Virus record (IMG/VR): IMGVR_UViG_3300046028_001578
Location: 486-64,485 of that record
Origin: a virus
Lineage: Duplodnaviria > Caudoviricetes
Direction: 5' to 3' (one strand)
Length of the DNA: 64,000 nt
Part shown: positions 1 to 58,974 of the stretch, piece by piece
Layout: the number at the start of each line of letters is the position of its first letter
How positions within the stretch are numbered: the stretch's first letter is position 1
The notes under the pieces: model-generated
What the model saw: the letters and a program-made list of their open reading frames with translations, nothing else
Database searches by the model: none
Told to the model about the DNA's origin: nothing
Program-made: the position numbers and the translations under genes

Positions 1-55
1 CGTTAATTAGTTTCTCTAACTCAGTATCAAACACCATGATAGTATCCTTTCTTAG

Positions 56-127
56 TGGGACAGAAGAGACTTGAACTCTTAACCAATCGGTTAAAAGCCG
101 ACTGCTCTACCATTGAGCTACAATCCC
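56..127 (-). tRNA. trnK: tRNA-Lys(UUU)
   Basis: Reverse complement GGGATTG-TA-GCTCAATGGTAGAGC-A-GTCGG-CTTTTAA-CCGAT...AAGAG-TTCAAGT-CTCTT-CTGTCCC-A folds as a cloverleaf; anticodon TTT; CCA not encoded. Confidence 0.93.
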
Positions 128-132
128 TATAG

Positions 133-205
133 TAGCACGGGTGGGAGTCGAACCCACACTACACAGATTTTAAGTCTGTAGACTCTGCCATTGGTCTACC
201 GTGCC
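133..205 (-). tRNA. trnL: tRNA-Leu(UAA) with short variable loop
   Basis: Acceptor GGCACGG/CCGTGCT-A, anticodon arm ACAGA-CTTAAAA-TCTGT, T arm GTGGG-TTCGACT-CCCAC; variable region only about 5 nt. Confidence 0.9.
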
Positions 206-208
206 ATA

Positions 209-259
209 GGTAGGATACATAGCATGATAGGGTCAAAGCCTATTGTATATGCACCTACC
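209..259 (-). ncRNA. armless tRNA-like hairpin with a Gln(UUG)-type anticodon loop
   Basis: GGTAGG-TGCATA-TACA-ATAGG-CTTTGAC-CCTAT-CATGC-TATGTA-T-CCTACC: 12-bp bulged stem, 5-bp stem and 7-nt loop; lies between two tRNAs. Confidence 0.5.
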
Positions 260-263
260 AAAG

Positions 264-337
264 CGTCCCTGACTGGACTCGAACCAGTAACCTATCGGGT
301 AGAAACCGATGCCTCTATCCAATTGAGATACAAGGAC
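264..337 (-). tRNA. trnR: tRNA-Arg(UCU)
   Basis: Acceptor GTCCTTG/CAGGGAC-G, anticodon arm ATCGG-TTTCTAC-CCGAT, T arm ACTGG-TTCGAGT-CCAGT. Confidence 0.93.
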
Positions 338-343
338 AGTGGT

Positions 344-775
344 TTAAAGTTCATCAACATGCACTTCAATAACATCAGCAAGTCTATCGAATGACATACC
401 ATGATCATTCAGTTCTGCCAAAGAGTCTTGTGCATGTGATGCATTAGTGAATCGTCCAAGTGCATCATGCATACCTGCCCATTCACGAACACGCAATGGT
501 AACACAAGGCTATCATTATCATAGACAGTAATAGAGTCATCACCTATACTCAACATCTGAGTGTGTTGAAGGAATACATCTGACTTACGAGTCACAACTT
601 GAACATCTAACTCATCCGGATTCTGTTGCATATACAGATCACACAGTACACCAAGGCAGCAGTACATACATGTCCCATTAATATCTGTGGCATGTAGTTT
701 ACCTGTTCCTTGTTGATAAGTACCAGACTTAAGAGCATCAACCCATTGCTTAGCAATATCAATCTTCATTGTCAT
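344..775 (-). CDS. conserved phage hypothetical protein (WxxALxSGxYxQG...CCLGV...LND motif)
   Basis: ORF track 344..808; start moved to ATG 775 behind GAGGAAG; motif pattern recognised from phage hypotheticals. Confidence 0.75.
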   Translation of the reverse strand: MTMKIDIAKQWVDALKSGTYQQGTGKLHATDINGTCMYCCLGVLCDLYMQQNPDELDVQVVTRKSDVFLQHTQMLSIGDDSITVYDNDSLVLPLRVREWAGMHDALGRFTNASHAQDSLAELNDHGMSFDRLADVIEVHVDEL

Positions 776-1037
776 CTTCCTCATAGTTAGGATCAATAGA
801 GAGAACACGCTTCATCTCAGTAATATATTCATGACCTGCCGTAATCATTGCTCCCTCTAGATCTTCAGGATCAAAGGTAGCATACCCATCAGTCTCAAGA
901 TAATGTTTAGGATCTAGTTCCATTTCTTCAGGTGTCCACATAGCAACGGCATAGCCTTGCTTACGGATCCAAGAGAATGCTCGGAATACATTGGCATCAA
1001 CACTAACACTCTTATCATACTCAAAGATATCAGTCAT
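759..1037 (-). CDS. early hypothetical protein, paralog of 1030..1254
   Basis: Start MTDIF behind AAGGG; shares W(I/L)RxxG(Y/F)AV-x3-TP(E/D)(E/D) motif with its neighbour. Confidence 0.7.
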   Translation of the reverse strand: MTDIFEYDKSVSVDANVFRAFSWIRKQGYAVAMWTPEEMELDPKHYLETDGYATFDPEDLEGAMITAGHEYITEMKRVLSIDPNYEEDDNED

Positions 1038-1254
1038 TGTAGTACCCTTCTTTAATCCATTCGATGTAGTTAAGACCAGCGGCTTGCATCTCAAGCTCGA
1101 TTGTTTCTGTATTAATCTTATCCTGTTTAGGTTCAACTTCTAAATCATCAGGCGTAAGTATAGTAACAGCAAACCCATGAAGACGGAGCCAATCATACAT
1201 ACGATCAGCAGTCTCATAGATAGTTTCATTAGCATCTAAGTCGGGTAAGATCAT
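1030..1254 (-). CDS. early hypothetical protein, paralog of 759..1037
   Basis: ORF with AAAGGA RBS; paralogous motif. Confidence 0.75.
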   Translation of the reverse strand: MILPDLDANETIYETADRMYDWLRLHGFAVTILTPDDLEVEPKQDKINTETIELEMQAAGLNYIEWIKEGYYND

Positions 1255-1267
1255 AAGGTTCCTTTAA

Positions 1268-1343
1268 TAGAAGGGGCGGGAGTTGCACCCACATACTCAC
1301 ACTTATAAGGTGTGCGCTATAACTTCGTTTCAGCCACCCTTCT
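1268..1343 (-). tRNA. trnI: tRNA-Ile(UAU)
   Basis: Acceptor AGAAGGG/CCCTTCT-A, anticodon arm CACAC-CTTATAA-GTGTG, T arm GTGGG-TGCAACT-CCCGC (non-canonical TGC T-loop), enlarged D loop. Confidence 0.8.
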
Positions 1344-1347
1344 CTGT

Positions 1348-1566
1348 TTACTTCTTCTTCTTCTTGAGAGGAACAGTTCTGTTATCCATACGCATACCAC
1401 TAATTTGGTTGTCTAATATTTGACACCACTTAATCAAACCATCACATCGTTCATTAACTTCATGCAGTCGAGTATCGTAATGTTTACGACTTAAGATGTC
1501 ACTAACAATATTGATAACAACATGTGTAATAAATCCAAACATTAGAATCAGTAGCGGAATATCCAT
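1348..1566 (-). CDS. small membrane-anchored hypothetical protein
   Basis: N-terminal hydrophobic helix; start coupled to upstream stop (TAATG). Confidence 0.7.
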   Translation of the reverse strand: MDIPLLILMFGFITHVVINIVSDILSRKHYDTRLHEVNERCDGLIKWCQILDNQISGMRMDNRTVPLKKKKK

Positions 1567-5541: not shown

Positions 5542-5636
5542 AGTGATCTCCTTAAAGTTTGAGCGAATAGACGGTAGAGCATACCCTTGCAGGTATACCC
5601 TACCGTCTACTCCCTTGCGGAAGTAGCGGGTGATAC

Positions 5637-6083
5637 TTAGATCACGATACTGTCGAGGACATCTGCGAGGACATCCGTACGAACCTTCGGGGTATACCCC
5701 GGAGTCTCATTCTCGAAGCGCAGGGTAGGAAACTTGTAACTCAGATATTCCATAGCCCATTGGGTAAACTGCTTGGCAGTCTCCGAGGTTTCATCCTGCC
5801 GTCCACGCCACCGGAAATCTGCAGCGGGGATACCTGCCTTGCCCAACAAGACAGACAGCATACTGTACTTGGTGCTGCAGTTCGGAGGCATGATATACGC
5901 GATACTCTCCATGAAGAGAGGCATGATACGCTGCGAGACTTTACCGTTCTCAGTGAACACCTTAACATCCTTGAGGTTACCATTAATCAGGGTAACATTT
6001 CCGTCTAGTGCCTCTTGGAAAGCACCTGCGAGGTTACAGGCATGGGCGCAACGATGAAACAAGTCGTATGAAAGTTCTTCCAT
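5637..6083 (-). CDS. first early gene, hypothetical (MEELSYDLFH...)
   Basis: ATG 6083 behind GGAG; the ORF-track upstream extension runs through hairpins. Confidence 0.7.
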   Translation of the reverse strand: MEELSYDLFHRCAHACNLAGAFQEALDGNVTLINGNLKDVKVFTENGKVSQRIMPLFMESIAYIMPPNCSTKYSMLSVLLGKAGIPAADFRWRGRQDETSETAKQFTQWAMEYLSYKFPTLRFENETPGYTPKVRTDVLADVLDSIVI

Positions 6084-6099
6084 ATTATATTCTCCGTTA

Positions 6100-7060
6100 A
6101 GTTTGAATCCGCATACCACGGTGGTATCGGCTAGGCGCACACCCTTGCGAGTGTACCCTAGCCGATATACCCCACCTTCCCGAAAGAAGGCAGGGTATAC
6201 CGGATTCTGTAACATTCTGTGTATATATACGCGTAACTTGCTAGGGTTACCGTACGGACAGGGTTATTGTAAACCCCCATCCACTATACCCCCCGTGCTG
6301 TGCATCGGGGTTTCCTTTACTGCGAATGACACCCTAGCCGCTAGGTTGTTCGCGTATACTTGGGCTTCGGGATACTGCAGCCGGGGTTGATCCGGCTTAG
6401 GGAATGGCACAGTTCACGCGCAGGTATTGCACCTGCTATTGTGGTGTAGTAAACATTCTTCGTCTTGTCTACTAGTTGCTCCCCTACAGTACGCCTAACG
6501 CGTATACTTGTAAGCCGTTATCAAACTGAACGATCCCTATGGCATCTGATCGCTGACCCTAACGGTAAGATCTTAAGATTTCGCAGCATCAATCGCTGAT
6601 AAGGGTGAACGATTGAACCGTTGAAATTACCGCTCCCCACCCCCTACCCCCGTTATCGGACGCGCCGCGCCGGAGGGTGACGGGGGGTCGCGCCGCCGGG
6701 GTAAGGTAAGATACCCCTTCACTAATTTCTGACCCCTCTAGTCGATTTCTCAGGGATGCCCCTAGGTTGCCCTGAGCTGGGTTGTTTGTGTTGATGTCCT
6801 CCGGTAGCCCCAGAGGGATCCGGGGACCCCATAGGAAATCGACAAGGGATTAACCGGGGGGTAAACCCCGGAGTGCTCTATTCCTTAAATAATCCTAGAT
6901 CCCCTTTCGGGGACCTAGGACCTGTATGTTTATATAATATTGTAATTAACACTTAGGTTAACTAGGGTTACCCTTAGGTTACCTAAGGGACTATAGTGTA
7001 CTATATATTCAATAACATAATTTTAAAACCTATAGATTAACCTAAGGTATCCCTTAAGTA
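6100..7060. other. non-coding region containing probable genome termini / terminal repeat
   Basis: About 1 kb without credible genes between the last late gene and the first early gene; GC-rich block 6630-6716; short taggtta/cctaagg repeats 6950-7058 reminiscent of T7 end repeats. Confidence 0.6.
6887..6920 (-). terminator. hairpin, possible terminator
   Basis: TCCTAGGTCCCC-GAAA-GGGGATCTAGGA followed by TTATTT. Confidence 0.5.
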
Positions 7061-7116: not shown

Positions 7117-10100
7117 TTATGGTTTATTGATACGCTTTAGTAAATCAGCTAGGGGCGCAGATGTACCAGCTGCATTACCTTCTGCGAAAGGAATACTAGG
7201 GGAACCCTTAGGTTGTCCCATGAATGCATTAGCCTTACGGTATGCCTCGCCCTCTTGTGCAAGATTCCTAGTGGCAGTAGGTATAGACCCACTAAACATT
7301 CTAGAGGCATCACTTGATACACTCTGGTTCATCTTATTAGCATAAGGTGTTGCTGGTCTTTGAACAACATTAAGATATCGTTCCAGACCTGCCTTCTCAT
7401 CTAAAGCTAAAGACTCTTCTAGGATTCTTACGGGAACCGCAAGAGGTGATTTATTAATTAAAGCTGGACCTATAATAGAAGCATTGGTTAAACCTCCCAA
7501 TGCTGTAGGGATATCGCCTTCCTTAATAGCACTGTAAGCTTTAGATAAACCCTTGTCTGTTCTGCTGAACATTGAAGAAATAACACCAAGACCGGGAGTA
7601 CTGAGTTCCATTGTTGGACTAAAGAGACTTCCACCTGATACCTTATTCAATGCCATTTCAAACACTGAGTTAGCAATTCCAAACAGAGGAATGGAGTGTG
7701 CTACTCTAGTAAGGATGCTAGCAGGGTTATCAACCATCTCCTTAGCAATGTCTGAGACATCTCTACCCATTAACCATTCCTTAATCATATTAACGAATCC
7801 GTCAATAGCTGCATAGGCTGCTAAGAACTTTAGATATCCAAGACTACTCTTGTTTGAATAGTCAACAATACGACCATCATGGAAAGCTCTAAGCCACCCG
7901 GTAAGAGCATAGATTACTCTACCAAGGGAACTACGACTTTCCATATCTGTCATCTTGTTTAAGCCGTATGGCTCTGGTGCTCTCTTTCGAGCAATCTCTG
8001 CTTCGATAGCATGCATGTAACTTTTTACTGCGCTATCTAAGGTATCAACATTAATACCATCTACAGGTCTTCTACGAACATCTTCAGCCAGTCTTTGAAG
8101 CTCATGGAAGTTAACTCTACCTTCTTTGTCACCAACCTTATCTATTGCCCATTCCAAATGAGTAAGCACTTCAGTTGTATTTAAACCATACTTAAGATAC
8201 ATGAGTGCTTCATGAGGATCTTTACCAAACCCAATCTCTCTAGCTAGACCAGCAAACTTCTTCCATAGAGTTCTTTCTGCTCGTGCAGATTTCAGAGAAG
8301 CTTCTAAGTAATTAGTAAACAACTGTCTATTAGCGGGATCTTCCATTGCTTTAATAAGCTTTTGGATTCTTCCTTTTTTAAGATTAGTAAAGATATCTCT
8401 TTGCATTTCATGTTTAGCTAACTGACGAACAAAGTTAGTTATCTGTGCAAGAGAACCAAAAGACTGTGCTCCTCGCTCTACTTTTTCAGCCAACTGTCCA
8501 GCCTTGTTATCATACTTGGGTTTTAGATTTGTATTGAATACATCTACTGTAGAATCAATCTCATAAGCTCCTTTGTTTAGTTGCTCAATATATCTATTGC
8601 TCATTTCAGGCATTAGACTTTGAAGACTAAAACTAATATCCCCAATTGGAGAATTTAAGAAAGCTGATTTAGATGAACGGTACTTACCAAAGATATGTTT
8701 AAAAGCTTCAGCTGCTGTTTTAGGATAGTCTACCACATTCGTATGTGTTAAGACATTTACAACTTCAGGACCAGCACTTAACCAAAAGCCGGGTGAGGTT
8801 GCAATACGAGCAAGAGTTAAACCACCTTCAGCCACAGTACCAGCAGAAGTTTTTTCTGAATAGGGTAATGTATTAACATTAGATCTATACTCTTCTCTAA
8901 GGCGAGTAATACCACGCTTTAAAGATTCCTGAGCAGCTTTGGTTCTTCGCTCTGACCAGCCTTCTTTCTTTGCTCGTGCATCTAAAGATTTGCTTTCATA
9001 TTCTAAACCAACATTAAGAGCATCTTCAATTGTAGTACCAGTACGACCAAACATACGATCTAGTTCTTTTTGGAATAACAACTCTGTGAGTCTACCACTT
9101 AAGAAGAAGTGTTGAGCTTCTGCTAGATTAGTACGGATAATACTTTTTAGGATACCAGTAGTATCAGCTAAGATTTCTTCAGGAGTTAAACCAGCAATGG
9201 CTAATTGAACATCTTCTCGTTGATCCATTTTTAAGAGTGGTCTATCTTGACCCTTAGTTTCAATGTATCGACCACGCTTCATCTTATGTTCCAGTAGTTC
9301 AAGCATTTCAACTCTAACTAACTCTTGGTTATTTAAAGCCTTCTGCCAGCGTGGTGTATACATAGAAGTATCACCACTAACTGCTGTATCATAAATTAAA
9401 AGATCAGCAGGAGATAGATCGGCTCTAGCCTTTGGAACTCGGTATGGAGTTACAACACTATTTGATTCAATAACAAAGGTATTGTAAGGATCACCGTGTC
9501 TTGCTAGGGATGCAATCGTGCTTGTTGTAGGTCCACCCAAAGATCCATCTATCTTAAGAATCTTAAGAGTCTCTGCAGATAGTGATCTACTGCCGGGTCC
9601 ATTAGAGAAGGTGCGGTTTCTTAATAATAAACCACCAGTGTCTCCTCCACCAACAGCATTAGCATCTAGCCAACCAAGAACAATTAAAGTATTAAGATCT
9701 AGTCTATCTCCCATCTTACGCTGTCTACGGGAAGTAGCTAGGGCTTCTAACACAGCAGTTGTATCAGCAGCACTCATACGATTTAGTTTCTCATGATCAA
9801 GCTGGACATTCATCCAAGTCTTAGGATCATAAGGATTACCATTAACATCATATGCAACACCTAGTTCTGTTTCTCTACTAAGCCGGAGGAATAGATCTTT
9901 AGTTCTAAAGTCTATATCCACTAGATTAAGTATTGAGGGTAAGATATCTTTTGCTGCAGCTTCTTCCATACCCATATCTTTAACTAAGCCAGCAACAGTA
10001 ATCTCTTCTCCCTTGGCAATCTTTTCCCACATATAGTTCTGGAATCGCTCCATTACTTTTGTAGTACCACCAAAGTTTTTTAAGACATCTAACTGAGCCG

Positions 10101-13100
10101 ATGCTAGTCTAAGTAAGATACGACTTTCCATACCTTTAGCAGATAGGAGAGTCTGAATTGGAATCTCACCGGGAGCAACTAATAGACCCGTTACATTACG
10201 AGTACCATCCATTAGTGATGCAAAGACTCTTATGATTGGAAAATCACTTCTAAAAGTATCACCAAGTCTAGATGCTCCTTGAAGAATATTAACTAAACTA
10301 CTTGTACTTGCTTGCCACCAATTTCGTTCTGCTCTATTGCTACCACCAAAGATATGACCAATAAAACTAGACATGCGTAAAGGCATAGCCATTCTTTTAG
10401 CAACAGATAAAAGACTAGCAAGAGTTGCTTTTTCTTTTGAGACAACTTCTTCAGTCTTAGCTGGAACTTCAGGTATAGCAGGTGCAACAGGTTTAGTTGG
10501 ATCTACAGGCTCAGTAGGTTTAGTTGGATCTACAGGCTCAGTAGGTTTAGGAGGACTTACTTCGTCAACAGGTTTTGCTGTTGGTGTTGGCTTTTCCTCA
10601 GCTACTGGTTCTGGGAAAGGCGATGGTTCAACAACCTTAACCATCTTTCTTTTCTTTCCAACTATTTTATATTCTCCGTCTACTGATCTAATTTCAACAT
10701 CAACCCCAAGAAGAACTGGTGCTAAGTATTCTCTATGAATCTTTTTTGCAGCTGTTTCTAAAAGAGCTGAATCCGACAGTCTTTTATAACCGGGATCAGT
10801 AGCAATGCGTTTTAACTCTGCTGCTCGTAATGTATCTACAGTCTTCCAGAATTCATTTACTTTATCTTGACCAAACTTAGTTAAATTAGATTTTTGAATT
10901 GAATCATTAATACTAACATAGATAGAGAAAAGTTTTTGGAATAGAGGAGTTGCAGATGTTTTGGCTCCCCCAGTATCAAACCCTTTCATGACTGTCCAAT
11001 ATGCTTTCTGGAAATGACTGAGGAACTTAACATCAATACCGTTGGCTCTAGCCAAAGCAGCATCTTCATTGACAACACGCTCAAAGTTAATGTGCTCTTC
11101 AGTCTCAACAAGTGGAGTCTTAACTGGCTTTGGAGCTGGTTTCTTAACTACATTGACTACTGGTGTAGCTTCTGTAATTTTAGGTGGATCAACCTTTGCA
11201 ATAGTTGTTACACCATCCTTCATAACCAAAGTTCCATCAGAATCTTCAATACGAGCAGAGCCAAGTGAAGTTGCTTCAGTCTTAGGTTTAACTAATACTT
11301 CACCCTCTGTTGTAGTTGTAACAACATCCTTGTCAGGCACTGCTAGTGCTTCTTTAACTAAAGGATCAGTATGATTAGCAATAAGTTTATCAGCAGCTTC
11401 AGCGGTCATAACCTCAGGACCAATTTGTTTACCATCAGCATTGGTCAGTGTATAAACAACTGTAGTGTTTGCTGGTGGTACTGCTTCAGGAATGGGAACT
11501 TCCTTTTTCTTTGCTTTTGAACGAAGTGCCATTGCATCAGTTACTTGAGTAGCAACCATCTGTTTAATCATTTCTGGAGCTACTGGAGTTACAACTGGTT
11601 GCGGCTCTATTTTTGTTAACTTAGGAACTTCAGTTAAAGCTCTAATTTTATTAGCTAATGGACCAGTAGGATTTAAGTTACCGTCTTTCATACCCTCAAA
11701 ACCTTCAAGGATATCTCGCGGAGTTAACTTTAACATAGCTTGTACTTCACCTAATTTAGCTAATGAAGCAGATCTAATTTCTTGAACCCTAGAAATTTCT
11801 AAAGGTCTACCAAAGATTACTTCAGATTTTGTTGCTAATTCTGCATCAGTTGGAATTGCTTTTCTAGCACCACCTGCTAAAGTTGTTGTACCTCTTACAA
11901 GATAATCCCATAGTTTTCTTTGATCTTCATCAAAAAGTTTAGTGAGAGTTTTAGCATTGGGATCTAAGAAACGCATAAAGGAATCTACTTGATATAAGAA
12001 AGTTCCTCTTACCATATCCTGAGTTTTAGCAGGGGCAACTTCTTTTTCTCCTGCAGTAGTTACAATGGGCATGCTAACAACTTCTAATTCAAAAGTTTCT
12101 CCAGATACAGTAGTCTTTCCCGTTGACTCAGTATTGCGTGGCTTAGTTGTTTCTAGTTCAAAGTTAATTGCTAAGAGTTCATCTTGAAGGTCTTTTGCTG
12201 TTTCTTTATCCCCAGATTCAATAGCTTTTTGTAGTTTAGCTTCAGCAGTTTTTTTAAGTTTTTCTAATTTAGTAATGCCAGGAACCTTTAAGTTCTGACC
12301 TTTTCCTTGTATATCTTTTAAAGCATTTTTAGCAGAAGTAACTAAAAGTTTACGAAGATCTGTAACATTCGTTAGTCCACCACTTGCTATTAAACTTTCA
12401 AAATACAAATCACCATCCTTTGTTTTTTCTGTAAAGGATAATAGCTTTGATTGTATTGCATCTAAAGCATTTGCTAAATTTTTAGTGTCACCTAGTACCA
12501 TTCGTAATACCAACTTACCTTGAGGATGAGCAGGATTAGTTAAATCACCTAAGTGTTTTAAAATATTATCCATTGTTAGGATAACAGAATCGGAAGCTTC
12601 AGGTACATCACTAGCATAATCTTTAAGAGTTCTAGTTTTTTTACCTGCAGTTACTGGTGCTTTTGGTTCAGCAACTTTTTCTTTTACTAAAGACCATTTC
12701 TGGATATTCTTATCATAATACAACTTATTATTTTTTACTAAAGTACTTAGTAACTTTACTGCTTCAAATGGATCATTAGATCTACTGATAGCTGCTAATG
12801 TAAATGGATCAATGATATCCATAATACCAGTTATAGCAGTTGCTGCATCTTTTTTTGTAACAGTATCCAAGGCAGCTGCAAAGCCTTCAGTCGTAAATGG
12901 AATTACACCCCTATCAACTGAAACTTCTGTTTCATTTTTAGGTTTTATTTCACTAGGTCTGACTTTTGGTTTGTTTGCTATCTGTGCTGCAAGATGTGCT
13001 ACAAGAATATCAGCATCAACTGCTGCTAAACTTATTATATCTACAAGACCGTTGGGAGTCACAAGTCCATGTTTTAAAGTGCCTTTAACTCTAAATACAA

Positions 13101-16100
13101 CTGAGTTACTTGTTGTAAAATCACTCTGTAATTGTCGTAAAAGAGGTTGCCATTCTGACTCATTAAAAAGAACTGGACTATCTTTATGTCCTTTACCTGT
13201 ATACTGCATCATCATCATTGCTACTGTATTATGTATACTATTATAAGGTAGAAATGTTTGACGGCTAGTATCCTCTGTATCTAGAGTTGAAATATAAGTT
13301 GAGCCTACATTGGTTTTATCCGCAACTAATGCTTTAAAGATTCTTTGATGAAATTCAGTTTCTTCTAATAGTTTTAAAAAGAAAACAAAATCATACAAAC
13401 TTTTTGTGAATCTAGGACCCATAGGCTCGTCAACAACAAGAGTTTTTCCATGTGCTTTTAATAAAGTATATGCTCCTAGTGCATGTGGGGTGTCAACGAT
13501 TATATCTTCTATAAATTGAAATTCTGCTTTAGTAAATGAAACCCGACTTTTTGCACCTGTTATTACATCTTTAATTGGGAGATTATTCCAATACGCAATT
13601 GATCCAACTGTGGAGTTAAAAACATCATCTCTTGCATTATACAAATCAAAGAAAACTTTACTAACACTAAGTTCTGGTTGTAGTAAAGTTTGTGTTCTTT
13701 GCATTTCCATTATTAAAGGTTGTGCAGCTCTAAAATAATGAGACTCATCTAATACATAAACAACATCTATCACCCGGTCTAGAATATCCTCTATAATGTT
13801 AAACATAAAATGTTTTTGACTTGGAGTAAATGATGCTACTAATTCGGCTTGTCCCCTAGCAAAAACAAATTGTGAGTAAGTTTCAACAAATAATTCTTCA
13901 GCGTTTTTAAAAAAGTATGGAATCTGATAAGTACGCATAAGATCAGTTGTACCAAATATTGGTGCTTTGCTAATTTCCTGATTATACAGTTCCAGCATTT
14001 CTATATATTTTGTAGGTCCAAAAGATTCATGTATAATTGCATGTCCAATTTCATGAAGAAATGTTTTTGCAGTTAAAGAAGAAGGAGTATTTACAGTAGC
14101 TGCATTAGCCTTTTTTATGCTTTCAGTAAATATAACAAGTTTAATATTTGCAGGATCGGTTACATAATCAAATGCACCTATAGCAATACTGTTAGGATCA
14201 GCATCAAACACATATTTTACATCAAAAGCTTTTGAATCAAAATCAAACTCTAAAGCTACTGCCAATAAAATTGTTCTATCTTCTTTAGACATTATACCAT
14301 GAACATCAACCATGTCATTTATAAAATCAAAAAATCTTATGGAATTAACCTCTGCCATTATAGTTGGAGCTTTATCGCTAACTATCTTTAAAAAATTGTA
14401 ATGGTTTTGTGCTAGTTGTTGAATCTTAGCTTTTTTTTCTGCACTCATTGTTCGTTTAACAACTCTTTGAACTATCTTAGTAATCTTAGCAATTTTGTTA
14501 GTTTGAATTCCGGCAATGCTTGCTTTGACAACACCTGCAGTTTCTTCTGATATTCTACCTGTAACAGCATTCTCAAGCGTAGCAGCATCAACTGCTGCTG
14601 AAACTTCGGGAGGAAGGTTATCTGGCTTCTGCTTTGTTCGGGCTGCTTCTAACAACTGTGCTGCTACAGAATCTGCAGCTGCATTACGCGTTGCTGCAGA
14701 GACTGCAGTATCACGAGCAATAGCAACACGATCTGCTACGGGTTGACCACGAAGTGAGGTATAGAATTCTTTTCGTTCTACCTTGGTTAACTGCTTAATA
14801 GAATTAGTAAGCCATCGCTTACGATCTCGTTCTAGTTTAGTATAGAATGTTTCTCTATCTTTAGGAAGAGCCTTTCCACTATGTCCAGCTGTTTCTGCTG
14901 CTTTAGCTTCTGTAATACGAGCTTCAGCATCAATAAGAATTCTAGCTCTACTAGTTGGACTCATGTTAAAGATAGTTGAACCATCATTACCAATCGTATC
15001 ATTAGCTGCAACATCCGCATTAGTTCGTCTACCTAGTTCAGATAGGAACTCTAATGAGTTACTGATTGTTCTATTAAGACCCATACGACTAGCGTACTGC
15101 GCTCTAGTTTCATTATCCAATCTAGCCATCTGAGATGACACAGGCTTAGAGGCAGCAGCGTCAGCAGTGTCAGCAGCCCTAGCTCCTGCACGGTTAACTT
15201 GAGTTTGTGTCTCTGTTGCAAGGTCATCTATAGTTGGTTTGGTGTCCTTCATTAAGGCTTCATTAATTACAACCTCTGCGGGTTGTTTATTTAATAATGT
15301 GCCAGCTCTTGTTTTAATACTACCGAAAGCATCTGCAAGTTCACCAAAGGGAGTATTCTTAAAGGTAAAGCTCCGCTCACCTCTAACTGTTATTGGTTGT
15401 ACTCCCGGAAGTCTTATTGTTTGTTTAACACCAAATAAACCACTGGATAACGCACCTGTTAAAGAACTTAGTATAGAACTACCTGCAAATAAAACAGAGC
15501 CAGTAATTGCACCATGTCCAAAAGATTCAAAGACTCTATAGTTATCAAACTCAATCTGAGCTTCTGGGTCAGCGTATTCAAGGGCAGCTGCATAAGCCAT
15601 TTCACTTTCTTGAACGGCTATATCATGCAATGCACTGATGCTACCTAAGGAAGCAGCACTAGCTCCTAAGCGTACAAAGATAGAAGAATTAGCAAGGTAT
15701 GCAGGGTGTGCTCCAATTGGTAATGTTGTTAATGCACCAAAGACTTTACCAGTTGCACCAACAACTCTTCGGGCGTTAATAGCAGACATTGTGCCTGTTT
15801 TAACTAACTGATAAGCAGTAGCTTTACCTAAAGTCTGTCCTAGTAAAGCACCACCAACTTTTACTAATCCACCAACAGCACCTGTTGTTAACATAAAAGG
15901 AACAAAGTCTGGTGTTAATACCATTCCTTCCGCAAATGGAACTATGGTTCGTAGTGTAGATTTTGTTAACCAATTTGCATTAGCAGTATAGTTAGCAATA
16001 CGACTTTGAATATTAGATACTGTCATAGCTCGTTTAATATAGAACTCTGCTTCATCTGCATTTCTAGCAGAGATAACCATCTCTAAAGAAATACCATTAT

Positions 16101-16926
16101 CAAACATAGCTTCTCTAATAATAGGATCTTTTGTTTTTTCTTCAAACCATGCCTGTGCGTTGAAGTTTGTATCTTTTCTAACAAGCATCTGTTCAATGTC
16201 AGCTGTATCTTTCGGCATCAATCCGTTACGCTCTTCTTCAGGAGTACGCCAAGCATCAGCAGCGGTGGCTGTATACCACTTCCAAACGCCACCAGCAATA
16301 GCTTGTGTGTCTCTATTAGAGGCTTCCTGTACATCTAATATACCATAAGTTTTGGGTGCAGATTGTGCTTTACGAACAGAAGCAAAAGTTAAATAATCTA
16401 TAGTTTCTTTAATTCGTAATTGGTTTTGTGTTAATGCTAGCGGATCAACAATTGCACCCGCTGGTTCATTATTCATCAACAGAGTCAAACGCTCTCGTGC
16501 CGTTTGAATCCCTTCTTCAGTTAACTGGCTATCTCCATACAGAATTCGTTGAACCGGACTTCTTGCTAAAAAGAGTGCTTTAATAGCAGCACCTTTTATG
16601 GGATCATTAAAAAGTTTTTTATCTGTTATTCCCCACACATTTGCAAGATTAAACAATGATTCATACGAACCTTGTGTAGCTCCTACATTAGCTTCTAAAT
16701 CATTTATATTTCGCCAAGTATCAAATGCTTCTTGTCTTCTTGCATATGCGTCACGATCCCATATATCTCTAGTATCTATCCATCTAGAGGGGGAATTAAA
16801 AAAGGTTGGTATGTTTCTATTTGCAGTGGGTAGCCCACGAAACTCAGCATCTTTAACTTCTAGTGATAAAGGTGTTTGATCTGGGGTTTGTAACGGTTTA
16901 GCTGATAGGTTAATATAATCAGACAT
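7117..16926 (-). CDS. giant (3269 aa) internal virion / ejection polyprotein with zincin HExxH and sigma-70-like modules
   Basis: Last gene of the core-protein cluster (T7 gp16-like position); hydrophobic helices near aa 340-500 and near the C terminus; FLHEIGH...EELFVE; sigma region 2/4-like motifs at about aa 1467-1728. Confidence 0.7.
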   Translation of the reverse strand: MSDYINLSAKPLQTPDQTPLSLEVKDAEFRGLPTANRNIPTFFNSPSRWIDTRDIWDRDAYARRQEAFDTWRNINDLEANVGATQGSYESLFNLANVWGITDKKLFNDPIKGAAIKALFLARSPVQRILYGDSQLTEEGIQTARERLTLLMNNEPAGAIVDPLALTQNQLRIKETIDYLTFASVRKAQSAPKTYGILDVQEASNRDTQAIAGGVWKWYTATAADAWRTPEEERNGLMPKDTADIEQMLVRKDTNFNAQAWFEEKTKDPIIREAMFDNGISLEMVISARNADEAEFYIKRAMTVSNIQSRIANYTANANWLTKSTLRTIVPFAEGMVLTPDFVPFMLTTGAVGGLVKVGGALLGQTLGKATAYQLVKTGTMSAINARRVVGATGKVFGALTTLPIGAHPAYLANSSIFVRLGASAASLGSISALHDIAVQESEMAYAAALEYADPEAQIEFDNYRVFESFGHGAITGSVLFAGSSILSSLTGALSSGLFGVKQTIRLPGVQPITVRGERSFTFKNTPFGELADAFGSIKTRAGTLLNKQPAEVVINEALMKDTKPTIDDLATETQTQVNRAGARAADTADAAASKPVSSQMARLDNETRAQYASRMGLNRTISNSLEFLSELGRRTNADVAANDTIGNDGSTIFNMSPTSRARILIDAEARITEAKAAETAGHSGKALPKDRETFYTKLERDRKRWLTNSIKQLTKVERKEFYTSLRGQPVADRVAIARDTAVSAATRNAAADSVAAQLLEAARTKQKPDNLPPEVSAAVDAATLENAVTGRISEETAGVVKASIAGIQTNKIAKITKIVQRVVKRTMSAEKKAKIQQLAQNHYNFLKIVSDKAPTIMAEVNSIRFFDFINDMVDVHGIMSKEDRTILLAVALEFDFDSKAFDVKYVFDADPNSIAIGAFDYVTDPANIKLVIFTESIKKANAATVNTPSSLTAKTFLHEIGHAIIHESFGPTKYIEMLELYNQEISKAPIFGTTDLMRTYQIPYFFKNAEELFVETYSQFVFARGQAELVASFTPSQKHFMFNIIEDILDRVIDVVYVLDESHYFRAAQPLIMEMQRTQTLLQPELSVSKVFFDLYNARDDVFNSTVGSIAYWNNLPIKDVITGAKSRVSFTKAEFQFIEDIIVDTPHALGAYTLLKAHGKTLVVDEPMGPRFTKSLYDFVFFLKLLEETEFHQRIFKALVADKTNVGSTYISTLDTEDTSRQTFLPYNSIHNTVAMMMMQYTGKGHKDSPVLFNESEWQPLLRQLQSDFTTSNSVVFRVKGTLKHGLVTPNGLVDIISLAAVDADILVAHLAAQIANKPKVRPSEIKPKNETEVSVDRGVIPFTTEGFAAALDTVTKKDAATAITGIMDIIDPFTLAAISRSNDPFEAVKLLSTLVKNNKLYYDKNIQKWSLVKEKVAEPKAPVTAGKKTRTLKDYASDVPEASDSVILTMDNILKHLGDLTNPAHPQGKLVLRMVLGDTKNLANALDAIQSKLLSFTEKTKDGDLYFESLIASGGLTNVTDLRKLLVTSAKNALKDIQGKGQNLKVPGITKLEKLKKTAEAKLQKAIESGDKETAKDLQDELLAINFELETTKPRNTESTGKTTVSGETFELEVVSMPIVTTAGEKEVAPAKTQDMVRGTFLYQVDSFMRFLDPNAKTLTKLFDEDQRKLWDYLVRGTTTLAGGARKAIPTDAELATKSEVIFGRPLEISRVQEIRSASLAKLGEVQAMLKLTPRDILEGFEGMKDGNLNPTGPLANKIRALTEVPKLTKIEPQPVVTPVAPEMIKQMVATQVTDAMALRSKAKKKEVPIPEAVPPANTTVVYTLTNADGKQIGPEVMTAEAADKLIANHTDPLVKEALAVPDKDVVTTTTEGEVLVKPKTEATSLGSARIEDSDGTLVMKDGVTTIAKVDPPKITEATPVVNVVKKPAPKPVKTPLVETEEHINFERVVNEDAALARANGIDVKFLSHFQKAYWTVMKGFDTGGAKTSATPLFQKLFSIYVSINDSIQKSNLTKFGQDKVNEFWKTVDTLRAAELKRIATDPGYKRLSDSALLETAAKKIHREYLAPVLLGVDVEIRSVDGEYKIVGKKRKMVKVVEPSPFPEPVAEEKPTPTAKPVDEVSPPKPTEPVDPTKPTEPVDPTKPVAPAIPEVPAKTEEVVSKEKATLASLLSVAKRMAMPLRMSSFIGHIFGGSNRAERNWWQASTSSLVNILQGASRLGDTFRSDFPIIRVFASLMDGTRNVTGLLVAPGEIPIQTLLSAKGMESRILLRLASAQLDVLKNFGGTTKVMERFQNYMWEKIAKGEEITVAGLVKDMGMEEAAAKDILPSILNLVDIDFRTKDLFLRLSRETELGVAYDVNGNPYDPKTWMNVQLDHEKLNRMSAADTTAVLEALATSRRQRKMGDRLDLNTLIVLGWLDANAVGGGDTGGLLLRNRTFSNGPGSRSLSAETLKILKIDGSLGGPTTSTIASLARHGDPYNTFVIESNSVVTPYRVPKARADLSPADLLIYDTAVSGDTSMYTPRWQKALNNQELVRVEMLELLEHKMKRGRYIETKGQDRPLLKMDQREDVQLAIAGLTPEEILADTTGILKSIIRTNLAEAQHFFLSGRLTELLFQKELDRMFGRTGTTIEDALNVGLEYESKSLDARAKKEGWSERRTKAAQESLKRGITRLREEYRSNVNTLPYSEKTSAGTVAEGGLTLARIATSPGFWLSAGPEVVNVLTHTNVVDYPKTAAEAFKHIFGKYRSSKSAFLNSPIGDISFSLQSLMPEMSNRYIEQLNKGAYEIDSTVDVFNTNLKPKYDNKAGQLAEKVERGAQSFGSLAQITNFVRQLAKHEMQRDIFTNLKKGRIQKLIKAMEDPANRQLFTNYLEASLKSARAERTLWKKFAGLAREIGFGKDPHEALMYLKYGLNTTEVLTHLEWAIDKVGDKEGRVNFHELQRLAEDVRRRPVDGINVDTLDSAVKSYMHAIEAEIARKRAPEPYGLNKMTDMESRSSLGRVIYALTGWLRAFHDGRIVDYSNKSSLGYLKFLAAYAAIDGFVNMIKEWLMGRDVSDIAKEMVDNPASILTRVAHSIPLFGIANSVFEMALNKVSGGSLFSPTMELSTPGLGVISSMFSRTDKGLSKAYSAIKEGDIPTALGGLTNASIIGPALINKSPLAVPVRILEESLALDEKAGLERYLNVVQRPATPYANKMNQSVSSDASRMFSGSIPTATRNLAQEGEAYRKANAFMGQPKGSPSIPFAEGNAAGTSAPLADLLKRINKP
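10489..10550. repeat. 27-bp tandem repeat (2.3 copies) encoding PTKPTEPVD linker
   Basis: aggtttagttggatctacaggctcagt twice plus a partial copy. Confidence 0.9.
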
Positions 16927-16962: not shown

Positions 16963-19900
16963 TTATTTGTTTAGTAGTCTTAATAGGTAATCTTTGGTAA
17001 GTTGTTTACGATTTTCAATAGCAGTCTTGTCTGCACTTCGTCCAGTTGGTAGTACCCACTTTTCAAAGTAAGCAATCTTGAATTGAACACCATAAAATTT
17101 ATCATTCATTGTGGTAGTTATAATATAATCTAAAGAAGGACCAATGTAAGGATACTTTGGATCCTTCTTTAAATCAGTAGCTACTTCTTGTAATTCTTTT
17201 TTGAATGCCGAATTAAAAGCAATAACTTCTGGAAGTTCTTGAAATACCCCAGTTTGGTTCTTTGGTTGTAAAGCCTTTACTTCATTATTAGTTAAAGACA
17301 TGTGGCGTATTACATCTTGTCCTGTTAGTGGAAAAGATTCTAATGCCATTTGAGGTATAATTTTACTAGGATCAGTTTCATTAGTAGCACTGCCAACTAA
17401 TCGCATTTGGAATTCAAATGCTACGGGATTCCAGCCATCCTTAGTAAACTGTCGGATACGCTTTACAGACGCAGCATCGTAGTCCTTATAAACAACTGTA
17501 GCATCTACATCATCTTTTGTCAAAATTTCTAAAGCTACATTTACTTGTTGTTGAGCAATGGGAGAGCCATAGCTTTCTCGTAATACCTTTGTAGACTCAC
17601 TACCACTATAAGTAGTAGGTGTCAATGGCAAACGATACTTATCAGGAATACGGTTTATATCTGTAATATTTGGATCGGCATACTCCAGCGTATTAGGTAA
17701 GTAACCATTATCTAACCAGAAATGTTTCCAATCAATACTAGCAGCTAAGTATGCATCCTTTGGATCTACATCAATTCCATCAAGGTTTAAGGCTTCACGG
17801 AATTCTTTATACTTAGCAGTGTACTCAGCTTCATACTTTGAAGGAAGAATTGTAGTATCGGTTCTTGGATTAGATACATTAAAATAAGTGTTGTCTATTA
17901 ACTGTTCTACAACTGCCTTAGCTTTACCTGCTAAATCTCTTTTAGTTTGCTGATAAGTGAAAGCATTTGTAAATCTTTGAGTATATGAATTATCATCTTC
18001 TGAGCTTTGTTTACCCCCAAGAAGTAATGTCATAGGTGCATCATAAACATCTTTTGGTATTACATCCTTACTAATATAAATATCTTCTGTTCTAGCTTCT
18101 TGAAACACACTATATCCTAACACACCTGCTGCTTTAATTTGATCAAAGTATGTGGGTGAACTTGGATTGACTAGAACTTTACCAGCTTTTCTGCCAGAAG
18201 GAATAGAAAAAGTTCCCTTTGGTATAGAAATACCTAGTTCTTCTTCAGCTTCTTTAGCTGCAACATCATTCCAATCAGTAATTGGTTTTATATTTAAAAC
18301 CTTAGCTTTAACAATACCAAACATATAGGCAGCAACATCTGTATTAGTCTTTGCTCCTTTGGCTATAGCAGCTTCATACATTAAAGGTATGTTCCGATTT
18401 GTAAACAGATTACGAGTACCACCAGTAGATAACTCAGTTTTTAGAATATCTGTGGTTTCTTTAAGTTCTGGTATACTTTTTGATGCTGTAACAAAAGTAT
18501 CTACATTCAGTTTAAACCAAGTCGTAAACTCAGTAAGACTACCTATAGGTACACTACCACTCTCACCAAAAATAGAAATCATTTGTTTATTTGATACAGC
18601 AGATGCATTATTAATATAAACAGAATTATCTTGTGGTGTTTTGTATGGTGCTGTATCAGCATAAGATAACACAGAACTTCTTATTGGTTTAGTTTCATCT
18701 GAATTAACCTCTGCTACTGTAGTAGCAATACCACTATCTTTTAGATCTTGTCCAAATGCTAAAGCCTCTGGTGAACCTTGAGGATATGAAGGTAACGATA
18801 AAGCTGGTTGGTTTGTTACTCTATTTTTTGGAGTAAACCTATCATTTATAAAAGATGTACTTACAATAACTTCTTTAAGTAGATTAGATTGTGTGCCATC
18901 TTTGTTAATTAATGTTTTAGATGGAAGAGTTTTAAAACTAATTGGAATACCACCGTTCTCTGAGTTAATATACGCAGAGTTATTACCAGTTAAATCTATT
19001 TCCATACCCCATTTTGACGCGTCATCTAAATCTGCTATAACAATTTTAGCTAATTCTAGTTTTCGATCCATAGAATCAGTAGGTTTACCACCATACCGAG
19101 CTTGTATACTAGGACTACATGCTGCAGCTAAGCGGACAATATCGACTGCAGGAGGATAAGTTCCAGTGTTAACACTATTTTGATTTGTTCTTACACCTTT
19201 GAGTTGCGAAGCTACTAAATCAAACAATTGCTCATCAACATCTGGTATAATACTTTGTGCTGTATCAACTAGGTTAACATCCATTTTTTGCATGGTGTTA
19301 GGACTACGCAAAGCTGTCATGGCATCTGGCGTTTCTAATACATTTTTAACTAGAGTTGCTTGTTGTTCTTTTCTTTTTTTAGGGTCTTTTATAAATGGAG
19401 GTATCCAACCATAACCCTCTTGTCTTAAAGCAACTAAGCTTCCATCATCGGTTTCTAAAGTAACTATACCCATTCTACTTTTTGTATTTAAGCTATAAGA
19501 AGTAACAAGAGTTTTTAATTTATCCTCATCTAGTTGTCCATTAGTGTTTTCATAGAAACTTGGATTTGCAAGTATGTCTGCCATAGCAAACATTACAGCT
19601 GCTTTAATATCAGGACTACCTTGAAATAGCGTAGCAATATTTTTATTATCTCCAGGCGTTGCATCAACAATAAACTCTTCACCTTTTAAAGTCACTGCGT
19701 TTGAAGTATAAGCAGCCATAAAAGCTTTATGTTCGTCACTATCTGGTACTAAATCAAATATAGTAGCAGCTATTTGTAATGCCACATTATTGCGAAACTG
19801 AACATCATTTGCAAGACTCATAGGGGCTTGTTTTGCTTTTCTTACACCACCTATATTCGGCATCTCTAACTCAGTTACATACTCTAAAACTTGTAGTCTA

Positions 19901-58404: not shown

Positions 58405-58974
58405 TTAAGTCTTTTGATTTACCACCATGTCTGTCCATGTAGGGATCCGGGCGAGGATGAACAGAGAAATCTCTGTGCCTTCCTTAAATCCTAGGATCTC
58501 ACATAAGACTGCACTATACATAGCAGCGTTGGGGTAAATGTTTTTCTGAGTTTGCTGACCAATAATACTCTTGATCTCTTGTATTCTAAAGTGATACCAC
58601 GGATGGTACGCTTCGATATAGTTTGCTACATCTTGCCAAGCCGGGTCAATGCCATCCTTATAGAATGAATTACCAAAGCCAGCAATAGGAATCTTCCTAT
58701 TAAGGAGGTCTACTATATCTCTAGTAGATGTGATCAACATCAGACGAGCCTCAGAGATGGGCGCATGATAGACACCAAGAGTTAGGATAGCCGAAGCTAA
58801 TGCATTCTCTAAGCGTCCTGTTGTACCACTTGCATTAAGACATGCCATTGAACTAGCGTTAGGATTATTCCTTGCTGAGTTAGCATGTGCTTCTATCACC
58901 ATGTTTAATAAGACTTGGTGATTAATAGAACCATGCGGTTCAACTACATAGGGTAGATCAACTGTTATTTTCAT
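58405..58974 (-). CDS. short citrate-synthase / citryl-CoA-lyase-like protein with divergent active site
   Basis: NASS, ALASAILTLG.YHA, IAGFGN..YK..DP, YPNAA, LFILAR...W align with citrate synthase C-terminal motifs. Confidence 0.75.
   Translation of the reverse strand: MKITVDLPYVVEPHGSINHQVLLNMVIEAHANSARNNPNASSMACLNASGTTGRLENALASAILTLGVYHAPISEARLMLITSTRDIVDLLNRKIPIAGFGNSFYKDGIDPAWQDVANYIEAYHPWYHFRIQEIKSIIGQQTQKNIYPNAAMYSAVLCEILGFKEGTEISLFILARIPTWTDMVVNQKT

Follow-up and report, generated by a model that had tools for sequence, protein, structure and literature searches.

The 64,000-nucleotide window analyzed here comprises bases 486–64,485 of the 64,485-base IMG/VR virus record IMGVR_UViG_3300046028_001578 (Duplodnaviria; Caudoviricetes), the completeness of which is rated 95%. 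The stretch is present in sequencing runs labelled lake water or freshwater metagenome. On its minus strand, a 57-nt spacer between the genes for tRNA-Arg and tRNA-Leu contains a 51-nt hairpin (positions 209–259), the terminal loop of which has the form of the anticodon loop of a tRNA-Gln(UUG). This hairpin looks like a tRNA remnant that is kept for a purpose, being neither a working tRNA nor junk. Sequence comparisons indicate that it probably derives from a tRNA-Gln(UUG), and our preferred reading, held tentatively and with a probability of about 40%, is that it represents a selected, tRNA-Gln-derived mimic of the anticodon arm acting through its loop. A function through the loop is favored because the bases of the loop and of the internal loop are conserved in two intact lineages, whereas those of the stems are not.

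Structure of the spacer hairpin

The original prediction, made from the sequence alone, described a fold composed of a 12-bp stem (GGTAGG/CCTACC plus TGCATA/TATGTA with one bulge), a 4 × 5 internal loop and a 5-bp stem closing the loop CUUUGAC. Every detail of this fold was confirmed. RNAfold calculated an energy of −18.8 kcal/mol (z = −3.07, with 1 of 200 shuffled sequences folding as well) and paired two additional bases of the internal loop. The elements of the hairpin and its borders are, in window coordinates:

209–259, minus strand: whole hairpin, with lower helix, internal loop, 5-bp upper stem and 7-nt loop (sequence; RNAfold; covariance model R1, 74.5 bits)
260–263, minus strand: 4-nt linker CUUU after tRNA-Arg (sequence)
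248–259, minus strand: 5′ strand of the lower 12-bp helix, GGUAGGUGCAUA (sequence, RNAfold)
209–221, minus strand: 3′ strand of the lower helix, UAUGUA-U-CCUACC, with U215 bulged (sequence comparison)
259–254 with 214–209, minus strand: outer stem, GGUAGG with CCUACC
253–248 with 221–216, minus strand: second stem, UGCAUA with UAUGUA, including one G.U pair
244–247, minus strand: 5′ side of the internal loop, UACA (ACA invariant in 7 of 7 sequences compared)
222–226, minus strand: 3′ side of the internal loop, CAUGC (CAAGG in other lineages; first C invariant)
239–243, minus strand: 5′ strand of the upper, anticodon-stem-like helix, AUAGG (4 of the 5 pairs of this helix vary on both sides among relatives)
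227–231, minus strand: 3′ strand of the upper helix, CCUAU (covariation comparison)
232–238, minus strand: 7-nt loop CUUUGAC, with the anticodon-like UUG at 236–234, U33 at 237 and A37 at 233
206–208, minus strand: UAU junction immediately 5′ of tRNA-Leu, common to phages with a real tRNA-Gln in this slot

In tRNA numbering, the loop reads C32 U33 U34 U35 G36 A37 C38. The total stacked length of the hairpin is equivalent to about 20–22 bp. The hairpin is single-copy in the window: a search with R1 and the filters switched off returned it with 74.5 bits, and the next best match had 12.1 bits (E 2.6). Other strong hairpins in the genome differ from it in design, being perfect stems rich in GC.

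Neither ARAGORN nor Rfam made a call in the spacer, in agreement with the earlier expectation that tRNA scanners would miss the hairpin, and Rfam gave no match in window 190–280 even at E ≤ 10. The U34 of the loop is, as had been stated, shared with all four tRNAs called in the window. Processing of the flanking tRNAs had been suggested to release the hairpin, and its location 4 nt from tRNA-Arg and 3 nt from tRNA-Leu is consistent with such a release.

Conservation and covariation in related phages

Close relatives of the phage were found in eight IMG/VR contigs, in which the neighboring protein is 86–94% identical; together with the window they form a clade of nine sequences. A search with a 23-mer from the 3′ end of tRNA-Arg recovered only the same eight contigs. 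Within the clade, 1 of the 57 columns of the spacer is variable, compared to 75 of 480 in the adjacent coding sequence (window 329–808). The sole variant, C214 to U in two of the eight close relatives, changes a G-C pair to G.U on the transcribed strand and corresponds to an A-C mismatch on the other strand. A protein search returned relatives of the neighboring PF26948 protein at 77–87% identity, and a scan of metagenome contigs with the alignment of this protein gave, among the matches listed, only distant homologs with at most 43% identity.

More distant relatives were collected by their terminase, the best 80 of 144 being used, and their whole records were searched for tRNAs and with R1. 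Four fragments without any tRNA (G006, G009, G016, G027) say nothing on the presence or absence of the hairpin. The terminase tree contains five lineages in an unresolved polytomy, and the hairpin was found in some form in four of them. In the lineage of G001–G003 and G029, the terminase is approximately 78% identical to that of the window and the cluster has the order tRNA-Ile, tRNA-Arg, 82 to 375 nt of spacer, tRNA-Leu(CAA), tRNA-Lys. The Arg-Leu spacer of these phages is unalignable outside the hairpin, which has the same design and the same ACA and CA.G internal-loop bases, lies 2–5 nt ahead of tRNA-Leu and carries the loop CUUUGAC (CUUUGAA in G002). The upper stem occurs as AUAGG/CCUAU, GAUGG/CCAUC, GCGGG/CCCGC or GCGGA/CCCGC and is still paired. 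The lower helix of the G001–G003 types is replaced in sequence with retention of the pairing, and it is continuous over 12–13 bp in every intact variant. Between the window and G003, the tRNAs are 71–87% identical and the hairpin 62%, with the identities concentrated in its unpaired parts.

A check for covariation in related phages had been proposed beforehand, and in the comparison the stems are rewritten and nevertheless paired. In a model-based alignment of six sequences, 12 of 18 pairs vary on both sides, a value reached by 1 of 500 shuffles, and the covariation score was 0.630 versus 0.274 ± 0.051 for the shuffles (0 of 500 as high) and at most 0.241 for slid controls. Paired bases occupy 85.7% of the alignment cells, although the ungapped alignment shifts the outer six pairs of the window out of register. 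Conservation of the loop was confirmed in part. CUUUGAC is kept in the window clade and, with CUUUGAA in G002, in the lineage with ~78% terminase identity, so that the loop is the same in four of the six sequence types if CUUUGAA is counted as one change; it deviates in the other two (G014 and G034). In the window, G001, G002 (with an A.C closing pair) and G003, a 5-bp stem closes a loop of 7 nt that has U33 and, at position 37, a purine; G014 has C33 and G034 has U37.

Beyond these lineages, R1 gave one weak partial match in 34 records with 51–68% terminase identity. This match, of 15.7 bits in G052, adjoins no tRNA and was judged to be due to chance, and matches of 15–17 bits in G025–G028 represent a different hairpin. 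A tRNA-Leu of the same kind is present in 111 other IMG/VR loci; R1 gave no match in the 100 of these that were covered, and none of 75 loci (L305–L379, of the 111 new loci) has an anticodon-arm-like hairpin within 90 nt upstream of tRNA-Leu.

Some further features were noticed in these loci. G001 contains an open reading frame (ORF) of 104 codons between tRNA-Arg and the hairpin (L257:1045–1359). In the spacers of G001–G003 (L257, L258/L259), a second small hairpin of the type GUAAGAAA..UUUCUUAC is located immediately before the anticodon-arm hairpin. In G034, the homolog of tRNA-Arg(UCU) (L303, ~1405–1480) has an insertion of ~21 nt after the anticodon arm and is not called by ARAGORN.

Origin of the hairpin and its possible function

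The comparison with tRNA genes of other phages points to the origin of the hairpin. A segment of 22 nt (245–224), comprising the 17-mer of the arm with 2 nt before and 3 nt after it, is identical to a real tRNA-Gln(UUG) of the 229-kb (jumbo) phage contig L016, and the match takes in position 26, the anticodon arm and the first part of the variable loop. Other phage contigs from freshwater (L458–L461, L415) have a real tRNA-Gln(UUG) 2–3 nt upstream of tRNA-Leu(UAA), within a conserved module tRNA-Gln(UUG)-tRNA-Leu(UAA)-tRNA-Gly-tRNA-Asn. The tRNA-Leu of this module agrees with that of the window at 70 of 74 positions in L458 and at 66 of 73 in L415 (90–95%), compared to 78–82% for the relatives from the window's own phage family. 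This closer similarity suggests that tRNA modules are exchanged between phages. The junction ..TAT/GGC before tRNA-Leu is also the same in the window and in the phages bearing tRNA-Gln. Since unrelated phages with a 90–95% identical tRNA-Leu have a real tRNA-Gln(UUG) in exactly this slot, the hairpin probably derives from such a gene; the 22-nt identity, the Gln-Leu adjacency and the shared TAT end together place it in the tRNA-Gln slot of a Gln-Leu module that would circulate among freshwater phages. An ancestral working tRNA-Gln(UUG) would fit the tRNA set of the phage, CAA being its major Gln codon (59% of Gln codons). The original prediction had named a randomly decaying pseudogene, with a full tRNA-Gln at this site in relatives, as the outcome that would speak against it. 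Other phages do carry the real tRNA-Gln in the slot, but no cloverleaf tRNA-Gln was found there in any of the six sequence types of the same phage family (ARAGORN standard mode), and the changes are compensatory and not those of random decay.

Two other sequences resemble parts of the hairpin. A Clostridia MAG contig contains, beside a tRNA-Asn, a tRNA-Gln(UUG)-like sequence lacking the T arm (L446:1255–1320, plus strand), in which CCA comes after a 7-bp acceptor stem, one hairpin resembles a D arm, and the 17-nt anticodon arm equals that of the window hairpin. This sequence folds with a z value of only −1.31, and the 5′ strand of its acceptor matches the real tRNA-Gln of L016. In six loci with a 70-nt gap between tRNA-Ile and tRNA-Leu (L339, L353, L359, L372, L383, L391), a different hairpin is located 16 nt before the same kind of tRNA-Leu. 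It consists of a GNRA-capped inner stem, an 11-nt bulge and a basal stem GGTAGG..CCTACC as in the window, which reflects either shared ancestry of the base or coincidence.

According to our preferred reading, a tRNA-Gln(UUG) gene formerly located directly upstream of tRNA-Leu would have been remodelled into the hairpin. The D arm, the T arm and the normal acceptor end would have been replaced by one continuous 12–13-bp helix, and the anticodon arm would have been retained with its 5-bp stem, the loop CUUUGAC and the flanking bases that equal tRNA positions 26 and 44. The hairpin would be co-transcribed with the tRNAs, and the 3′ cut of tRNA-Arg together with the RNase P cut of tRNA-Leu would free an RNA of 51–58 nt, to which the helix may confer stability. 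Judged from its shape and from the lack of dedicated machinery in the record, this RNA presumably has no adaptor role in translation. It would instead most likely offer a U-rich anticodon loop of the tRNA-Gln type to a factor recognizing anticodon arms. Of the possible roles, the most plausible would be that of a competing substrate or decoy for a host anticodon-loop nuclease, and a less plausible one the titration of an enzyme modifying U34 or A37. The decoy version, which taken by itself we regard as unlikely, holds that the gene was whittled down to the part recognized by anticodon-loop nucleases and is made in bulk from the tRNA operon. The RNA would then soak up a defense nuclease attacking U-rich anticodon loops (Cas13-, PrrC- or PARIS-like) and act beside the replacement tRNAs Lys(UUU), Leu(UAA), Arg(UCU) and Ile(UAU). 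In the available part of one report, LshCas13a is described to prefer cutting tRNA Lys(UUU), Glu(UUC), Gln(UUG) and Thr(UGU) and to cut small anticodon-arm-like loops elsewhere (PMC11042736), and an excerpt of another describes that anticodon stem-loops in isolation are cut by Cas13b6 (PMC13692257). By analogy, these data provide a precedent and not evidence for this phage.

Several observations weigh against a selected arm mimic. The fold energy is unexceptional, ranking 455th among 12,788 windows of 60 nt on the minus strand, the complementary strand folds equally well (−19.4 kcal/mol), and sense and antisense energies are similar in four of seven sequences, so that the strand is not decided by energy. 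By our own arithmetic, a random 7-nt loop has a chance of ~1 in 16 to show the pattern pyrimidine-U-NNN-purine. The hairpin stands above chance because it is conserved and covaries in relatives, and not because of its energy; the covariation statistics are themselves weak, as they rest on six sequence types from four lineages, with an alignment fitted to the model and two near-identical rows. In G014, the loop is CCUUUAA, with U33 and G36 changed, the lower stem is weaker (9 bp), the hairpin is located 50 nt from tRNA-Leu, and the upper stem shows one compensated A-U pair. G034 has GUAGG-CUUUGUC-CCUAC after ACA, with a short basal stem plus a small extra hairpin. The altered loops of these two lineages indicate either that the loop is not essential or that these copies are decaying. 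A further lineage (G004, G005; complete or 90% complete records) lacks the hairpin, and its tRNA-Leu directly follows coding sequence. A 20-mer of the arm had no match in species-representative cellular genomes, and none of the 40 matches of the 17-mer in the same genomes lies in a called tRNA, so the hairpin does not reproduce any known host tRNA arm exactly. Codon usage accounts well enough for the tRNA set of the phage, and neither a defense nuclease nor a host is known for it. Finally, contigs from four metatranscriptome runs show only the presence of the region in RNA libraries and not a stable small RNA. The 290-nt contig X19 spans window 124–412 with tRNA-Leu, hairpin and tRNA-Arg unprocessed, and the 1,960-nt contig X20, from a diverged relative, ends at window 264, which is the 3′ end of tRNA-Arg. 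These contigs give no ends, strand or level and may stem from DNA carry-over, which makes them neutral with respect to a stable small RNA.

A serious rival, somewhat unlikely in our estimate, is a structural processing or insulating hairpin in which the fold matters and the loop does not. It would serve either as a site for a double-strand-specific RNase (RNase III type) or as a self-contained fold that prevents the leftover spacer from mispairing with the neighboring tRNAs in the precursor. T7 separates its transcripts at hairpins with an asymmetric internal loop, and the T7-like organization of the phage (see below) suits this explanation, as do the stacked length of roughly two helical turns with an internal loop, the covariation of the stems, the loop changes that G014 and G034 tolerate, and a finding from six other phage loci, where a tRNA-Leu of the same kind is preceded by an unrelated hairpin sharing the basal GGTAGG..CCTACC stem. 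A structural role predicts, however, that the stems are more constant than the unpaired bases, and in the two intact lineages the reverse is found. With 12–13 bp, an internal loop of 3–4 × 4–5 nt and just 5 bp above it, the hairpin also has a much shorter upper stem than the T7 sites, which possess ~10 bp above the internal loop. A T7-type site would moreover recur at several boundaries, whereas there is no second copy in the genome. In nine other phage loci, tRNA-Arg lies within 20 nt of tRNA-Leu without a hairpin (0–11 nt apart; eight with at most 5 nt, one with 11 nt), which argues that the hairpin is not needed for processing of its neighbors. Less probable is a neutral relic, i.e., a vanishing tRNA-Gln pseudogene in which the stem pairing is refreshed by template-switch mutation in the inverted repeat and not by selection. 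The real tRNA-Gln in the slot of other phages, the degraded appearance of the G014 and G034 copies and the loss of the hairpin in one lineage would be expected for such a relic, and template switching is reported, in the part of the source at hand, to create and maintain hairpins (bioRxiv 10.1101/2021.04.15.439925/PMC8794818). It leaves the conserved unpaired bases unexplained, though, and the loop, the internal loop and the architecture persist despite full turnover of the flanks between lineages whose tRNAs are 71–87% identical. The low variability of the spacer in the window clade compared to the neighboring gene, and the many pairs changed on both sides with pairing retained, likewise do not correspond to random decay.

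The remaining explanations have far lower probabilities. A partnership with tRNA-Leu in cis or trans is quite improbable; in this case the UUUGA of the loop would kiss the tRNA-Leu anticodon loop (UUAAA or UCAAA) and affect its maturation or protect its anticodon. By eye, five contiguous pairs are possible with tRNA-Leu(UAA or CAA) in the window, G001, G002 and G003; G014 also allows five, though with the register shifted, and G034 allows four. Where an ORF is inserted after tRNA-Arg in G001, the hairpin stays with tRNA-Leu. Every loop of the Gln(UUG) kind can pair with every Leu(YAA) loop, however, and real tRNA-Gln and tRNA-Leu genes lie side by side elsewhere, so that the complementarity may simply be inherited. 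Furthermore, loop position 36 does not covary with the wobble base of tRNA-Leu, and tRNA-Leu is present without the hairpin in G004 and G005. We also see little probability for an element acting at the DNA level, such as a promoter, an origin or a tRNA-derived attachment site. Both strands can form the hairpin, and its arm is similar to a portion of a tRNA gene, a feature common among attachment sites. Yet the record has no integrase family, the site lacks a T arm as well as the 3′ half of a tRNA and shows neither a sigma-70-like promoter nor a terminator, and the single copy does not fit a family of phage RNA polymerase (RNAP) promoters. The variable arms and the conserved center are the reverse of a palindrome bound by a dimer, and the sole polymorphism of the window clade retains pairing only in the transcribed sense.

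Least probable is the working armless tRNA-Gln that the original prediction had considered, which would be CCA-tailed, charged and used on the ribosome; such a decoding tRNA is very unlikely. It would accord with the 7-nt loop with U33, UUG and A37, with CAA as the major Gln codon of the phage, with a lower helix of ~12 bp, the length of acceptor plus T stem, and with the adjoining tRNAs, in which CCA is not encoded either. But the connectors pair (UGCAUA/UAUGUA), resulting in a straight hairpin instead of an L or boomerang, no break separates the basal 6 bp (GGUAGG/CCUACC) from the 6 bp above them, and UAU forms the 3′ tail. ARAGORN called none of the six sequence types in standard mode. Its -mt mode returned "Gln" in three of them, with forced, mismatched acceptor stems and, in two, overlap with neighboring tRNAs, and the -mtx mode, run as the stricter setting, returned none. 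U33 or A37 is lost in two lineages, and in the 64.5-kb record no tRNA-synt_1c (GlnRS/GluRS), GTP_EFTU (EF-Tu-type), PolyA_pol (CCA-adding) or RNA-ligase family was found that could charge, deliver or complete such a tRNA.

The preferred reading, a selected anticodon-arm mimic, can be compared with several known systems. In enoplean nematodes, armless mitochondrial tRNAs have unpaired connectors; they become charged and take part in decoding together with mitochondrial factors that have co-evolved with them. The hairpin shares with them the size of a ~45–55-nt tRNA-derived RNA with an anticodon arm and a basal stem and without D and T arms; it differs in that its connectors form a long helix and in that it belongs to a bacterial phage encoding no dedicated factors. 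Like the RNase III hairpins of the R1.1 type in T7, it occurs in a T7-like phage, spans about two helical turns and has an asymmetric internal loop between transcript units. The T7 sites, in contrast, are found at many gene boundaries and have a longer upper stem and no conserved loop, whereas the hairpin is unique and its loop conserved. The "species 1 and 2" of T4 are likewise stable non-tRNA RNAs of a phage tRNA operon that are freed by tRNA processing; their function is unknown, and they are larger and do not mimic anticodon arms. The thrS operator bound by ThrRS is also a hairpin copying a tRNA anticodon arm for a tRNA-reading protein, but it is part of an mRNA leader and regulates translation of the synthetase, whereas the hairpin is a free-standing unit in a tRNA array. 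An excerpted report describes that tRNA-Lys of T5 counters PARIS, i.e., that a phage tRNA neutralizes a tRNA-cleaving defense (PMC11464382). In both cases a product of a phage tRNA cluster is proposed to act against anticodon-loop nucleases, and the window cluster also has a tRNA-Lys(UUU). As far as the excerpt goes, however, T5 tRNA-Lys is a complete functional tRNA replacing the cleaved host tRNA, whereas the hairpin would be unable to decode and could only compete. As regards substrates of Cas13a and Cas13b, the available parts of the sources report a preference for tRNA-Gln(UUG) and cutting of isolated arms and look-alike loops, so that an RNA consisting of the arm only would be recognized (PMC11042736, PMC13692257); for the present phage, this is a mechanistic precedent only.

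Phage tRNA genes are currently read as codon-usage helpers and as spares against tRNA-cleaving immunity. The hairpin would illustrate a third fate, in which a phage tRNA gene is neither left whole nor deleted but cut down to its anticodon arm and then conserved. In the open-access literature, we found no description of a phage armless tRNA, an anticodon-arm mimic, a tRNA-like hairpin or an anticodon-nuclease decoy; a decoy, if confirmed, would thus be an RNA-based anti-defense mechanism of a kind not found described there. If the arm acts as a mimic, it would provide a small and easily synthesized RNA probe for the host factor reading tRNA-Gln-type loops, and even a mere processing hairpin would be a clean case of a tRNA gene recycled as a structural element. 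The finding would also be a reason to screen the "empty" spacers of phage tRNA clusters for structure.

The phage and its tRNA cluster

All long ORFs of the window are located on the minus strand. The genes include those for a single-subunit RNAP, a T7-type primase-helicase, PolA (family A DNA polymerase), portal, major head protein and large terminase. The layout of the phage is T7-like, as the single-subunit RNAP, the T7-type primase-helicase, PolA, portal and terminase are all encoded on one strand. No GenBank phage has an RNAP sharing more than 27.9% identity with its own. For window 1–1500, megablast gave no match in GenBank phages, and the blastn matches in these phages were confined to tRNA parts and covered at most 7% of the query. 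ARAGORN and Rfam called four tRNAs, all on the minus strand:

1268–1343, minus strand: tRNA-Ile(UAU) (ARAGORN and Rfam)
263–337, minus strand: tRNA-Arg(UCU), upstream neighbor of the hairpin (ARAGORN; Rfam 57.7 bits at 264–337)
132–205, minus strand: tRNA-Leu(UAA), downstream neighbor of the hairpin, 74 nt with a short variable loop (ARAGORN and Rfam)
55–127, minus strand: tRNA-Lys(UUU), last gene of the cluster (ARAGORN and Rfam)

TTA is the top Leu codon and AGA the top Arg codon of the phage, and the tRNAs of the cluster fit its favored TTA, AGA and ATA codons. The UAU anticodon of tRNA-Ile is kept across the phage family, whereas most bacteria read AUA through a modified CAU anticodon. Bacterial tRNA-Leu normally carries a long variable arm; the "tRNA-Leu" (UAA/CAA) of the window and of more than 120 IMG/VR contigs has, in contrast, 73–75 nt and a 5-nt variable loop of class I shape. 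Its putative identity is based only on ARAGORN naming by the anticodon.

Three further features of the window lie outside the tRNA cluster. Between an ORF of 192 codons and a gene of 3,269 codons, GC-rich hairpins of very high strength follow one another in window 5560–6900 (minus strand), with −25 to −40 kcal/mol per 60 nt in a genome of 41% GC. Several of them have GCAA- or GAAA-type loops; the series may represent a structured RNA, or else several terminators or processing sites. Three giant ORFs on the minus strand (7117–16926, 16963–21168 and 26315–32986, with 3,269, 1,401 and 2,223 codons, respectively) had no match to a PHROG family. The ORF at 58405–58974 (minus strand) encodes a protein of 189 residues whose match to the citrate synthase domain (PF00285, E 5e-12) is confined to the C-terminal part of this domain, an unusual finding in a phage.

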